64,000 bases of DNA, from IMG/VR virus record IMGVR_UViG_2654587728_000014, positions 1 to 64,000 of that record; one strand, 5' to 3'. The notes beneath the pieces are model-generated. The model did not search any database and had not been told where the DNA came from. It was given only the letters and a program-made list of their open reading frames with translations. Source of the stretch: a virus. Lineage: Duplodnaviria > Heunggongvirae > Uroviricota > Caudoviricetes. Positions 10,682 through 22,421 of the stretch are shown piece after piece (position 1 is the stretch's first letter; the number at the start of each line of letters is the position of its first letter). Position numbers and translations under genes: made by a program.

Positions 10682-10845
10682 ACTGATTAGACTTGAGATA
10701 AATGACAGGGAATAAGTGAGATATTTATGGGAAGAACTGGGTCAAAATGGGAAGAGACTAGGAGGAATATGCAATAACCTTACAGTATGTGAAAATCAGA
10801 CCGGCCCGAAAAAAAACAGAACTCGCGCCAGCCTGATTGCAGATA
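10682..10845 (+). repeat. Mu-like end (left-end type) with repeated putative transposase-binding motifs
   Basis: TGATTAGACTTGAGATAAATGACAGG (compare Mu L1 TGATTCACTTGAAGTACG); ATGGGAAGA direct repeats; CGAAAAAAAACAG. Confidence 0.5.
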
Positions 10846-11235
10846 TTACTCTTTTTTCTCCGTATCTGCATCGGGTTCATCAGCAAATAGCTTGCCCTGC
10901 ATCCGATCCAGTTCTTCTTTTCTTACCCGCTTAACCACGCTGTAGACCCACTGAAGCGAAACACCAAATTTGCGGGCCAGTTCGTGGTGGTTGCGTCCGT
11001 TAAACTCCCTGAAGATTTCCCGGTCGCGCTGACTGACCTTCCATACCATGCCCATCGGGAAATAAACGTTTTGCCCGCCCCAGACCTGCATCATTCGGTT
11101 CGCGACGGCCTGACCAATCTGGTCGGCAACTTCGGGCTCAATATCAATAATCTCGCGAACGGTCTCAGAGGTATGCTGTGCCAGTTCCACCAGGAGTTCC
11201 GGCCCCTTACTTCGAAACTGATTCAGGTCGCTCAT
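10846..11235 (-). CDS. mor: Mor/C-family transcriptional activator
   Basis: 129 aa; C-terminal HTH ...ELARKFGVSLQWVYSVVKRVRK typical of Mor/C; directly downstream of gemA-like gene. Confidence 0.78.
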   Translation of the reverse strand: MSDLNQFRSKGPELLVELAQHTSETVREIIDIEPEVADQIGQAVANRMMQVWGGQNVYFPMGMVWKVSQRDREIFREFNGRNHHELARKFGVSLQWVYSVVKRVRKEELDRMQGKLFADEPDADTEKKE

Positions 11236-11656
11236 GTTTGACTCCCGCAGCTCTGCGCTGCCACTTCTTCAGTTTCTCAATAACACTGCTTGCCTGTTCA
11301 GTACTGAGCCAGCGCAGGGCGCTGATGCCCGTTTCCCGCTTGATCCACCTCGCTAATGCATTTTCTGAACGGTCACGAACAATGCCGGCAGCAGCCATTT
11401 CAAGCCATAGCGCACGAATTTTCCTGGACTGCGGATGGTTATCCAGCGGTAAACCGGAGCTGGCTTTTCTGGCTGGTTTAACGCGAAAGCCTTTCTTTTT
11501 CATGGATTCCAGCACGCAGTTTAGTTGTGTGGTATCCATTCCTTTGGTTGAGGCTTTACCGGTCAGCCCCTGTAACATCTGGCGGTAGGTGTCTTCATCC
11601 ATACCCAGTTCATTACGGGCAATATGGATAAGCTGTATCAGGCGTTTTTTCTGCAT
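11207..11656 (-). CDS. gemA: GemA-like protein (Mu gp16 family)
   Basis: 149 aa; synteny with mor; family call from memory. Confidence 0.65.
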   Translation of the reverse strand: MQKKRLIQLIHIARNELGMDEDTYRQMLQGLTGKASTKGMDTTQLNCVLESMKKKGFRVKPARKASSGLPLDNHPQSRKIRALWLEMAAAGIVRDRSENALARWIKRETGISALRWLSTEQASSVIEKLKKWQRRAAGVKHERPESVSK

Positions 11657-11657
11657 A

Positions 11658-11864
11658 TCATCTCCTTTTTTTCAGTCTGTCGGCAACAATGTCGGTTGCA
11701 GCTGGCAGGGTGACTGGCCAGAACAACATGACGGCGGTCATGTACAGGATGTAATGCGCGGTGTCGTAGTGCCTGCCATAGCCCAGGGAACGATGAAGTC
11801 TTGCGCTGCATGATCCTGCGTACATATACCAGAAAAGAAAACAGACAATGGTTTCAGTAGTCAT
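11658..11864 (-). CDS. small membrane protein
   Basis: 68 aa from ATG after GGGGAGG RBS; hydrophobic (FLFWYMYAG..., LYMTAVMLFWPVTL). Confidence 0.45.
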   Translation of the reverse strand: MTTETIVCFLFWYMYAGSCSARLHRSLGYGRHYDTAHYILYMTAVMLFWPVTLPAATDIVADRLKKRR

Positions 11865-12084
11865 TCTGAATACCTCCCCATTCGATATGAATATTACGGG
11901 CAGCAATGACAGGGTCGTTATTCCACCATGCACCTGACATGTATTTTTCAACCTGTTCGCGTCCGGCAATAACACCAATTGTGATCCCCGGCCTGACGTT
12001 CTTAAAAAAGGCGCGGGCAAAAAGGTATCTGGCAGATATTCGGCAGGCTTTTAATTTCCGGCTTTTACCTGATAGCGTAATCAT
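11854..12084 (-). CDS. hypothetical protein
   Basis: 76 aa; GGAGG RBS; start overlaps upstream stop (ATGA coupling). Confidence 0.5.
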   Translation of the reverse strand: MITLSGKSRKLKACRISARYLFARAFFKNVRPGITIGVIAGREQVEKYMSGAWWNNDPVIAARNIHIEWGGIQNDY

Positions 12085-20014: not shown

Positions 20015-20778
20015 CAGAAGTTGCAGATTAGCAGTTCACGGCGCGGCGTGGGTTTACCCGCCAGACTGTAGTTGATATTCACTGTCTGTATGTTCAGTCC
20101 AGTGAACACCTCGCGCATCTGCGGGATGTCGTTCACCGAAATTATCATTTTTCCTCTGATGCACCGGGCCAGCTCTGCCAGCCGCGAGTAGTTCCCTTCA
20201 GGAAAATCCACACCATAGCCTTCCGTACCCAGGTACGGTGGGTCGCAGTAGAACAGCGTGTGCGGACGATCATAACGCTCAATGCACTGTTGCCAGTCCA
20301 TGTGTTCTATGACTGTTCTGGAAAGCCGCAGGTGTGCCGCTGACAGTTCTTCTTCAATACGTAGCAGGTTGAAGCGTGGCGGGGATGTGGTGGAGGTACC
20401 GAAGCTGTGCTCTGCCACCTTGCCGCCAAACGCCTGCTTCTGAAGGTAGTAGAACCGTGCCGCACGCTGGATATCCGTCAGTGTTTCTTCCGGGGTGATC
20501 TGCAGCCATTTGTAGATCTGACGGCTGACCAGCGCCCATTTGAACTGGCGGACAAATTCTTCCAGGTGATGCTTTACCACCCGGTACAGATTCACCAGTT
20601 CACCGTTGATATCATTGATGACTTCGATCTTGCCGGGTGTCTTAAGAAAATAGAGCGCTGCTGCCCCACAAAACGGCTCCACATAACATTCATGCGCCGG
20701 AAACAGCGGCAGAATGTGTTTTGCAAGGCGGCGTTTGCCACCAATCCACGGCACGATGGGTAATGTCTGCATTTTCAT
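20014..20778 (-). CDS. dam: DNA adenine methyltransferase (Dam-like, orphan)
   Basis: about 254 aa; IVPWIGGKRRLAKHILPLFP... and DPPY motif (FYCDPPYLGTEGYG). Confidence 0.85.
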   Translation of the reverse strand: MKMQTLPIVPWIGGKRRLAKHILPLFPAHECYVEPFCGAAALYFLKTPGKIEVINDINGELVNLYRVVKHHLEEFVRQFKWALVSRQIYKWLQITPEETLTDIQRAARFYYLQKQAFGGKVAEHSFGTSTTSPPRFNLLRIEEELSAAHLRLSRTVIEHMDWQQCIERYDRPHTLFYCDPPYLGTEGYGVDFPEGNYSRLAELARCIRGKMIISVNDIPQMREVFTGLNIQTVNINYSLAGKPTPRRELLICNF

Positions 20779-20968
20779 AATCTGCAAGCCTTTTACAATT
20801 ATTAAAAAATATGGCAGTCTGGTCAGGTCTCGCGAGACTGACTGAACCTTGGTCGGCTCACAGCGCATTCCTGTGGGGCGATGACCAGCCCGGCTTTCGG
20901 GTGCCGGGCTGGTCGTTCTTTCATGATGCGGCAGGGATGGCGGGATTTCTGTTAATGTGGTTTAGGGA

Positions 20969-21184
20969 TTATCCGGGGCGATTTTCTGACCTTATCCGGT
21001 CCAGGGCATAAGTAATACCTTCTGCAAAAACAGAAGTATCAAACTGCTTTTGTATTCCCTGAAAATGAAAAGCGGCACGACAGACACTCAGTTCTCCGCG
21101 GTATAACCGGATAATATCTTCCAGAACATTGTTCACTGCTTCAGCACGGCGCTGATGTTCTGTTAACGTTAATCGGGGATTCAT
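20969..21184 (-). CDS. hypothetical protein
   Basis: 71 aa with strong AAGGAG RBS 6 nt upstream of ATG. Confidence 0.45.
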   Translation of the reverse strand: MNPRLTLTEHQRRAEAVNNVLEDIIRLYRGELSVCRAAFHFQGIQKQFDTSVFAEGITYALDRIRSENRPG

Positions 21185-21587
21185 GATGCACTCCTTAAAT
21201 GATGATTTTTATGTACTCACCGGCAAAATATTCTGCCGATTACTGAACACGCATCCGGCACCTCAGGTTTTGATTTATTCTGGTTTTTTCGATATCCCGG
21301 ACCAGGTTGATCACGACCAGAAAAAGTGCCGGTGTTTTATTGATACGCTGATATGGCTTCGGGATAACAGCTATATTCGTTACTCTCAGTTGCTGGCTGT
21401 GGGAGCGGCTGATGTCGTCCTCACGGAAAAAACGCTCTGTCTGCTCAATGCCATGCCGACCTTTCTGCAGCCCCGGCCCGTACCATTTAAAGAGTCACTT
21501 CTGGATGCAGTAAAAACCGGTGAAAATGCAGTCATCGCTGAATGCGTATCCCGGATTATGCGTTACGTGTTTAATGAACGTAAGTGA
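21183..21587 (+). CDS. hypothetical protein
   Basis: 134 aa; start codon overlaps the divergent 71-aa ORF start; weak GGGGA RBS. Confidence 0.35.
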   Translation: MMHSLNDDFYVLTGKIFCRLLNTHPAPQVLIYSGFFDIPDQVDHDQKKCRCFIDTLIWLRDNSYIRYSQLLAVGAADVVLTEKTLCLLNAMPTFLQPRPVPFKESLLDAVKTGENAVIAECVSRIMRYVFNERK

Positions 21588-22291
21588 GGTTTATCCGCTG
21601 TCTGCATAATCCCGATAGCCAGTGCGAGGGGAAGTAATTCCGGGGAAACTCTTTCAAACAGCGATGCCCATTCTCCTCTCGCCATCACTCTGTCCAGCCC
21701 GCCCTCCAGTTGCATTTCAGCAATCTTCCTGATTTCCCGGAACAACGCCGCTTTGATCTCTTCATGCTCAGCTTTATTTTCCGGTGTCAGAAGGTATTCG
21801 TCGAAGAACCGGGGAGGCTGGTTAATCGGGATGTGTTCCTGTTTGCCGTACTTCGGGGACGAACAACATTCTGTTGACTGACCAGTGAGTTTACGTAACT
21901 CCTTCATGAGCAGCTCCTGATCGTAAACTGTCATCAGTGCCGCAATGGTGGCATGCAGTGCATCGGGCAGTATCCAGGGTTGCCGGCCCGTGGGGCATAT
22001 AACATCCAGCAGCTCATTCGTCCGACAGATACGCTCCTCGCCGTATGACAACAGGCCCTGTCCCGTGTATTCCTCCAGCCTGATCACTGTGCCAGCCCGT
22101 GGTTTCTGCCATGTGCTCAGATCATCCCCACTCATACGGCGCTCACCGTCCACGTCTGCGGCGTCGACAATGACGCTGTTTCCGAATTCCTGTTTCACCA
22201 CTTCCTCTATTCGCGCCAGTACGTAACTTTTACCGCTGCCCACAGGACCGGACACGGTGACAGTGATGACCGGATTCAGTGTCTGCGTCAT
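21563..22291 (-). CDS. P-loop NTPase of unknown function
   Basis: 242 aa; N-terminal Walker A VSGPVGSGKSYVL; no recognisable second domain. Confidence 0.55.
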   Translation of the reverse strand: MTQTLNPVITVTVSGPVGSGKSYVLARIEEVVKQEFGNSVIVDAADVDGERRMSGDDLSTWQKPRAGTVIRLEEYTGQGLLSYGEERICRTNELLDVICPTGRQPWILPDALHATIAALMTVYDQELLMKELRKLTGQSTECCSSPKYGKQEHIPINQPPRFFDEYLLTPENKAEHEEIKAALFREIRKIAEMQLEGGLDRVMARGEWASLFERVSPELLPLALAIGIMQTADKPHLRSLNT

Positions 22292-22421
22292 ATCGTATTC
22301 TCCTCTGTGAATAATTCATCGTTTATCCTGCACATCCCGTATCCCCGGCTCTCTTAACGCGCTTTAAAATCCTTCGCGCCCTGTATTTGTGATGCTGTCT
22401 CCACCAGATAAGGAGACACAC

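Follow-up and report, generated by a model that had tools for sequence, protein, structure and literature searches.

The early region of a Mu-like prophage nested in a P88-like prophage very probably has the native layout of BcepMu/B3-type transposable phages

The stretch of DNA analysed in this work (the window; 64,000 nucleotides, positions 1 to 64,000 of the IMG/VR virus record IMGVR_UViG_2654587728_000014, Caudoviricetes) contains two segments, 10684-44872 and 4865-8002, which together make up one transposable (Mu-like) prophage of the BcepMu/B3 type. Genes were called with Pfam, NCBIfam and PHROG profiles on the open reading frames (ORFs) of the window, and protein-level synteny was determined by tblastn (Table 1). 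The profile searches confirmed the gene order and strands proposed in an initial annotation of this DNA: mor, gemA, gam, B, A and ner are all directed toward the prophage end that adjoins mor, and the repressor gene, 8.86 kb inside the left end (9 kb in the initial annotation), points toward the late genes. It was also correctly stated there, in agreement with the Mu annotation, that in Mu the repressor gene adjoins the left end, with the early operon directed away from it. Two explanations had been offered for the difference: either this lineage natively has a flipped early module, or a further inversion occurred with a breakpoint between the prophage end and the mor stop codon.

Table 1. Features of the window, listed by position.
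Feature	Position	Strand	Basis or remark
Copy of the target-site duplication, GTGACG	4859-4864		P88 tape-measure homology ends at 4864
gin-like serine invertase of the Mu-like prophage	4943-5515	-	76% identical to Mu Gin (tblastn); stop codon 78 nt from the right end
gix-like site	5579-5591	+	
gix-like site	7551-7563	-	
gix-like site, left boundary of the inverted block	7990-8002	-	PhiKM-like DNA stops, P88-like DNA starts
Second Gin-family invertase, of the P88-like prophage	8067-8666	+	73% identical to Mu Gin; matches P88 26983-27564
Copy of the target-site duplication, CGTCAC, in the P88-like tape-measure gene	10678-10683		Adjoins the left end; reverse complement of GTGACG at 4859-4864
Left end (attL-like)	10684-10845		Terminal TGA and two TGAGATA(A/T)(A/T)T repeats (~10694-10704, ~10717-10729)
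mor, sole Mor/C-family late activator, last gene of the early operon	10846-11235	-	Pfam Mor, E 1e-43
gemA	11207-11656	-	Pfam GemA, E 8e-41
Variable accessory early genes, including a DUF2786/DUF7168 protein (12081-12800)	11658-13760	-	ORFs, Pfam, PhiKM and JJ2434 annotation
gam, host-nuclease inhibitor	13858-14388	-	Pfam Phage_Mu_Gam, E 2e-40; 61% identical to Mu Gam
B-like transposition ATPase (ExeA/AAA_22 type)	14688-15854 (longest ORF to 15893)	-	Pfam AAA_22; PHROG 296 'DNA transposition protein', E 2e-93
DDE transposase (A), BcepMu/B3 type	15865-17634	-	Pfam rve only; PHROG 310 transposase, E 4e-147
Three conserved genes between ner and A: hypothetical, DUF3102 (17967-18887), IclR-type helix-turn-helix (18898-19206/19212)	17650-19212	-	Pfam; PHROGs 1748 and 1368
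ner-like helix-turn-helix gene, BcepMu gp16 family, first gene of the early operon	19259-19447	-	NCBIfam TIGR04111, 97.4 bits vs cutoff 34
Divergent control region	19448-19540		Between the ner-like gene and the repressor gene
Xre/CI-type lysogeny repressor, directed toward the late genes	19541-19897	+	Pfam HTH_3, E 5e-15
Dam methylase (D12)	20014-20868	-	Pfam MethyltransfD12
Accessory ORF between repressor and lysis genes	20969-21184	-	Module 20014-22291, with a match to PHROG 3787
Accessory ORF between repressor and lysis genes	21183-21587	+	Same module
Accessory ORF between repressor and lysis genes	21563-22291	-	Same module
Holin, start of the late (lysis and packaging) unit	22389-22772	+	Pfam Holin_2-3
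SLT endolysin	22775-23515	+	Pfam SLT
gix-like site within the tail-fibre gene of the Mu-like prophage, at the right boundary of the inverted block	44872-44884	+	
gix-like site	46470-46482	-	

The products of the transposition genes are of the type found in BcepMu and B3. The transposase is 68% identical to gp09 of BcepMu and 56% identical to ORF12 of B3 over 98-100% of its length, and has no BLASTP similarity to MuA (E 0.48). The ATPase, encoded directly downstream of the transposase, is 59% identical to BcepMu gp08 and 55% identical to B3 ORF11, and has no BLASTP similarity to MuB (E 2.6). The labels A and B given to these genes in the initial annotation hold in the functional sense: judged from sequence comparison, the two proteins would be functional analogues of MuA and MuB, not their BLASTP-detectable homologues. 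The three genes between ner and A are colinear with gp10/gp12 of BcepMu and ORF13/14 of B3, the ner-like protein is 71% identical to B3 ORF17, and the repressor, which is of the Xre/CI type and not of the Mu c type, is 25% identical to the c repressor (ORF18) of B3. Mor is 54% identical to BcepMu gp01, 30% to Mu Mor, 37% to Mu C and ~29% to its B3 counterpart, the corresponding values for GemA being 44% (BcepMu gp02), 36% (Mu GemA) and ~29% (B3). In the tblastn comparison Mor, GemA, B, A, the DUF3102 protein, the IclR-type regulator, ner and the lysis genes holin, SLT and Rz were colinear and co-oriented with BcepMu and B3; the repressor had a match in B3 only, not in BcepMu. Among the early-region proteins just Mor, GemA and Gam had a match in the left arm of Mu, hence Mu, SfMu and D108, which had been proposed as the frame of comparison, are the wrong reference for the transposition genes, with Mor, GemA, Gam and Gin as the only proteins in common with Mu.

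No second Mor/C paralogue was found in the window when all stop-to-stop frames of at least 40 amino acids were searched with phmmer (next match E>1), and a tblastn search of the window did not detect a separate homologue of Mu C, there being only one Mor/C homologue. Tblastn of the window with Mu Com, Mom, c, Ner, A, B and Lys gave nothing below E 0.2. The earlier remark that a second Mor/C-type activator, com and mom were not seen is thus borne out; their absence is normal for the lineage and does not represent loss from Mu.

The left end of the prophage is at 10683/10684: tape-measure DNA of a P88-like prophage extends to 10683, and the phage sequence starts at 10684 with TGATTAG (TGATTAGACTTGAGATAAATG...). 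There is indeed an end at this place, 2 nt away from the previously assigned position 10682, and the spacer between the end and the mor stop codon is short as described, although its length is 162 nt rather than 165. The right end, at 4865 (end region 4865-4942), reads TGATGCGCCGCGCGATAAATG..., and the 78 bp distance reported between it and gin was accurate. Both ends begin with TGAT in the inward direction, i.e. the element has the TG...CA termini of the BcepMu/B3-type phages. The first ~90 nt of the left end are colinear with the left ends of BcepMu and B3, the common features being the TGA terminus, the two TGAGATA-type repeats and GGGA blocks. The spacer, which was to be checked for a truncated attL site set, contains one intact set of terminal repeats typical of the family and shows no sign of a breakpoint. 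Both the left and the right end are 100% identical to the respective ends of a prophage in Escherichia coli JJ2434.

By megablast and local BLAST, positions 1-4864 and 46565-64000 of the window belong to a P88-like (Xuanwuvirus, P2-like) prophage in reverse orientation, whereas 8073-10683 represents the same prophage in forward orientation and includes its invertase gene, gpU and the C-terminal portion of the tape-measure gene. It is this tape-measure gene (gpT) of the P2-family prophage that the Mu-like prophage interrupts, the flanks of the interrupted gene being at 3499-4864 (+) and 9194-10683 (-). The two stretches of P88 homology that meet the break have exactly 6 bases in common (P88 29579-29584), which correspond to both copies of the target-site duplication (TSD). 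In the window the two 6-bp copies are inverted relative to each other. Escherichia phage PhiKM (PQ738613), filed in GenBank under Bcepmuvirus, matches segment 10684-45007 at 99-99.6% identity. The early, lysis and structural ORFs are all intact and 99% identical to those of PhiKM, which is an isolated phage, and the reconstructed length of the prophage, ~37.3 kb, is close to the 37.0 kb of the JJ2434 prophage.

The element is very common in E. coli. A 1.4-kb block comprising the left end and mor was found in 641 of 5426 complete E. coli genomes (~12%), among them genomes of sequence type 131 (ST131). Depending on the genome, the host gene next to the first base of the left end is one of over 15 different genes, among them ycaL, prpR, paaZ, phoA, gcd, irp2, cbtA and an Ail/Lom gene. 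Insertion at many sites with a short TSD (6 bp in the window as well as in JJ2434) is characteristic of the BcepMu/B3 type. To see the layout across the family, a transposase profile was run against one genome per species, which yielded 80 loci from ~25 genera (Enterobacterales, Burkholderiales, Neisseriales, Pseudomonadales and others). Positions in this survey are given relative to the transposase gene A, and the denominators are the loci in which a homologue was detected. Mor (70/70), GemA (70/70) and the B-like ATPase (76/76) were always downstream of A on the same strand, the ner-like gene was upstream on the same strand (66/66), the repressor gene upstream on the opposite strand (59/59), and so was the SLT endolysin gene in 50 of 51 loci. 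Mor was followed, at a distance of 114-500 nt, by a terminal TTATCTCAC-N6-7-TCA motif in at least 31 loci. Among phage records, 69 had a match to the transposase, and in most of the 40 listed the transposase gene is on the minus strand, 5-8 kb from the start. Independent Mu-like prophages with this same early orientation as their native state, the observation which according to the initial annotation would tell against a rearrangement, were thus encountered many times, in the 80-locus survey as well as among the E. coli insertions.

We consider it very probable (roughly 0.95) that the seemingly backwards early region is the native layout of a BcepMu/B3-type transposable prophage, and not the product of rearrangement in a Mu phage. 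This reading rests on gene identities, order and strands, on the ends, the TSD and the conservation of the layout across the family, all of them direct observations. The layout itself is already known, it is the published architecture of the BcepMu/B3 branch. In the B3-like organisation the early operon is inverted relative to Mu (Vergnaud et al., PMC5977238, citing Braid et al. 2004), and relatives such as SalMu, PhotoMu and ChromoMu, from enterobacterial and other hosts, were reported together with BcepMu in 2004 (listed in a review). A Tn552-like rve transposase and TG...CA termini are reported for the BcepMu relatives, and BcepMu is devoid of an invertible G region (KS10 paper, PMC2628397). 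Of the two possibilities raised initially, it is the natively flipped early module that agrees with the published architecture and with the invariance seen in the surveyed loci.

A real rearrangement is, nevertheless, present in the window. Block 8002-44872 (36.9 kb) is inverted relative to both flanks; it contains the invertase gene, gpU and the tape-measure fragment of the P88-like prophage, together with the portion of the Mu-like prophage that extends from the left end as far as the constant part of the tail-fibre gene. This inversion accounts for the inverted TSD copies, for the inward direction of both prophage ends on the plus strand and for the location of the right end and gin at 4865. 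As a result, the prophage ends are direct repeats, and the right end precedes the left end by 5.8 kb in the window. Because the block moves as a unit, mor has kept its place relative to the left end.

The boundaries of the block coincide with two of five sites matching the gix-like pattern ACSTTGGTTTRGG, against 0.27 expected; all five fall on the LGLGEG junction of a variable tail-fibre part. Colinearity with PhiKM is 99% up to 44545, where 168-bp repeats are located, then the identity is 94.7% across the site at 44872 to 45007, and the variable part of the PhiKM tail fibre matches window 8002-7867 at 99.3%. The repeat unit, 168 bp (56 amino acids) long, is present in 3.5 tandem copies at 44121-44705, within the constant portion of the tail-fibre gene of the Mu-like prophage, one copy more than in PhiKM as judged from the alignment offsets. 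The two Gin-family invertases of the window are 86% identical to each other. Between the Mu-like and the P88-like tail-fibre genes there is now a segment (44872-46479) with 99.9% identity to the invertible, G-like segment of the Mu-like prophage in JJ2434 (3462-5069 of the JJ2434 locus), and on account of this identity a P88-like origin was rejected. The segment beside the Mu-like gin gene (5587-7546) has no counterpart in the JJ2434 Mu-like prophage. The two prophages thus seem to have exchanged tail-fibre segments. A single inversion from a JJ2434-like ancestor does not yield the present arrangement of the invertible segments; either three inversions or an ancestor with different segment content is needed.

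Could the orientation of the early region be explained by rearrangement after all? An inversion within this prophage, which flipped a Mu-type early region and had one breakpoint in the ~162 nt between left end and mor, would derive its only support from the contrast with Mu, where c is at the left end and the operon reads rightward from ner to mor. We give this explanation practically no chance: the spacer and the whole early region are 99-100% colinear with PhiKM, the JJ2434 prophage and hundreds of independent insertions, the spacer has a terminal repeat set with homology to the BcepMu and B3 left ends, the orientation is invariant across genera (70/70 loci), and the transposition genes are not of the Mu type. 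The large invertase-mediated inversion (8002-44872), which also separated the prophage ends, did take place, as is evident from the inverted TSDs, the two inward-facing ends on the plus strand and the opposed P88-like flanks, but it is very improbable that the early orientation is its by-product. The inverted block carries the left end, the tape-measure fragment and the early and late regions as one piece, and in JJ2434, where the prophage is not inverted, the early region has the same orientation relative to the left end.

It must also be considered that the locus could be a decayed or chimeric remnant, or an assembly artefact, with a gene order devoid of biological meaning. The P88-like host prophage is disrupted, the Mu-like ends are now in direct orientation, and the exact junction between the tape-measure gene and the left end, sought as the un-inverted ancestor, gave no match across the junction in any of the 5426 complete E. 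coli genomes. Intact ORFs with 99% identity to PhiKM and a total length of ~37.3 kb, fitting the 37.0 kb of JJ2434, make this account hardly credible, and the precise 6-bp TSD together with precise recombination at gix-like sites favours biology over misassembly. Some caveats apply to the placement of the element on the BcepMu branch. Megablast of the early and late regions gave no nucleotide match to BcepMu, thus membership at the genus level is based on protein similarity and on the GenBank filing of the 99.5%-identical PhiKM as Bcepmuvirus. BcepMu has neither gin nor an invertible segment, and its left 14 kb contains no match to a Mu-type Gam, which makes the enterobacterial lineage of this prophage a mosaic. 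Apart from these caveats, we noted no evidence contradicting the native layout.

In the native layout of this lineage, the left end is followed on the bottom strand by mor, gemA, accessory genes, B, A, the three conserved genes and the ner-like gene. Beyond the divergent control region, the top strand carries the repressor gene, accessory genes and lysis genes, then the genes for heads, P2-like tails and a tail fibre containing an invertible segment, and lastly gin, next to the right end. The direction and timing of transcription are taken, by analogy, from the literature on the B3-like phage Fc02. In strand-specific RNA-seq of Fc02 the reverse strand carried the pE operon, whose transcript began with the ner-like homologue and extended to mor, and the forward strand carried the repressor and the late clusters (Ramirez-Sanchez et al., PMC9936078). 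By this analogy, when repression is lifted, the early promoter beside the repressor gene would fire leftward. The transcript would cover ner, then the rve-type transposase and the ExeA-like ATPase, which would carry out replicative transposition, then gam, gemA and finally mor, and would end at a hairpin ~50-150 nt from the terminal transposase-binding repeats. Mor, the sole activator of the Mor/C family, would then switch on the rightward late operons in trans. As Mor acts in trans, the orientation of the early operon relative to the late genes would have no mechanistic cost.

Candidate regulatory sites for such a scheme can be recognised. In the divergent control region the best sigma-70-like site (10 of 12 positions) is on the minus strand, with a -35 box at 19523-19518 and a -10 box at 19500-19495, thus the candidate pE-like promoter is 48 nt upstream of the ner-like start. 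Its 17-nt spacer is occupied by a perfect 18-bp palindrome, TGCTCATAATTATGAGCA (19500-19517), whose half-site recurs over the start codon of the repressor gene (region 19495-19547); the palindrome is a plausible candidate operator. A strong terminator-like hairpin with an 11-bp stem lies 3' of the repressor gene (19983-20007). In the minus-strand RNA, mor is followed by a hairpin at ~10795-10837 (-33 kcal/mol for the 121-nt fold, z -2.7) and then by a short U-run; this candidate terminator may limit read-through of early transcripts into the flanking host DNA. There are just two occurrences of the composite motif TTAAAATC-N7/9-CCTGYATTT, both on the plus strand: one at 22364-22388, immediately before the lysis operon, and one at 29831-29853, immediately before the head operon; none is expected by chance. 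The two sites are candidate Mor-dependent late promoters, a lineage-local hint, since conservation of the motif is absent in BcepMu, B3 and the 80 related loci, where the few matches are intragenic.

With its ends in direct orientation the prophage is presumably unable to transpose as a unit. It is tempting to regard the two invertases and the five gix-like sites as one cross-prophage multiple-inversion system, acting as a reversible on/off lock, but we find this rather unlikely. Should the inversion be reversible, it would lock and unlock the Mu-like prophage with respect to transposition and induction, and would in addition re-pair tail-fibre modules between the two phages. Cross-talk between the invertases of nested prophages is the one mildly unusual feature of the locus; a precedent is provided by a preprint on ST131, which described inversions and a translocation between homologous tail-fibre regions of prophages of the 'Entero_P88' and 'Burkho_phiE255' types, both of which have invertases.

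Enterobacterial prophages called 'Mu-like' have at least two architectures, and the one described here belongs to the BcepMu/B3 branch. When Mu is used as the annotation template, the transposition genes are mislabelled, c is expected at the end, and a normal layout is read as rearrangement. Given how common the element is in E. coli, its correct recognition is of practical value for prophage annotation.

It is instructive to compare the prophage with its relatives. In the annotations of BcepMu (NC_005882; Summer et al. 2004) and B3 (AF232233) the order and the strands are the same, mor being 365 nt from the left end in BcepMu and 124 nt in B3. On the minus strand mor is followed by GemA, accessory genes, B, A, DUF3102, a helix-turn-helix regulator and a small ner-like gene, and the plus strand carries an Xre/CI-type repressor, holin, SLT endolysin, Rz and terminase. 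BcepMu resembles the prophage of the window also in its TG...CA termini, homologous left-end repeat set and single Mor/C activator. Its accessory genes are different, and although its left arm has no tblastn match to the repressor of the window, an Xre/CI-type regulator is annotated in the same position and on the same strand. B3 and the other beetreviruses share with the window the inversion of the early operon relative to Mu, but B3 is a siphovirus with another tail module and lacks gin.

The closest relatives, PhiKM and the JJ2434 prophage, are 99-99.6% identical to the prophage at the nucleotide level over nearly the whole element, and have the same genes, order, strands and ends, including the genes of the accessory module at 20014-22291. 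In JJ2434, an E. coli ST131 genome, the prophage is intact and un-inverted, it is 37,045 bp long, lies between aroA and ycaL, and is flanked by a direct 6-bp TSD (GAAGAA). It has mor at one end and gin, annotated as an equivalent 'recombinase family protein', at the other. The prophage of the window differs from these two in its insertion site and in the content and arrangement of its invertible tail-fibre segments, and the 36.9-kb inversion is specific to the window.

Phage Mu (NC_000929, Muvirus) has in common with the prophage the transposable-phage lifestyle, the early-operon order ner, A, B, gam, gemA, mor, homologous Mor, GemA, Gam and Gin proteins, and an invertible tail-fibre segment beside the right end. 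In the window, gix-like sites flank variable tail-fibre and assembly genes. The differences are that in Mu the c repressor gene adjoins the left end, the early operon reads rightward, co-directionally with the late genes, and there are MuA, MuB, the second activator C and com/mom, none of which is detectable in the window. The TSD of Mu is 5 bp, versus 6 bp for the prophage of the window. The closeness of Gam to its Mu counterpart (61%) is far above that of the other early proteins shared with Mu, and the left arms of BcepMu and B3 had no Gam match, which suggests module exchange between Mu and the enterobacterial BcepMu-like lineage. The element is not a Muvirus but a mosaic, which has Mor, GemA, Gam and Gin in common with Mu.

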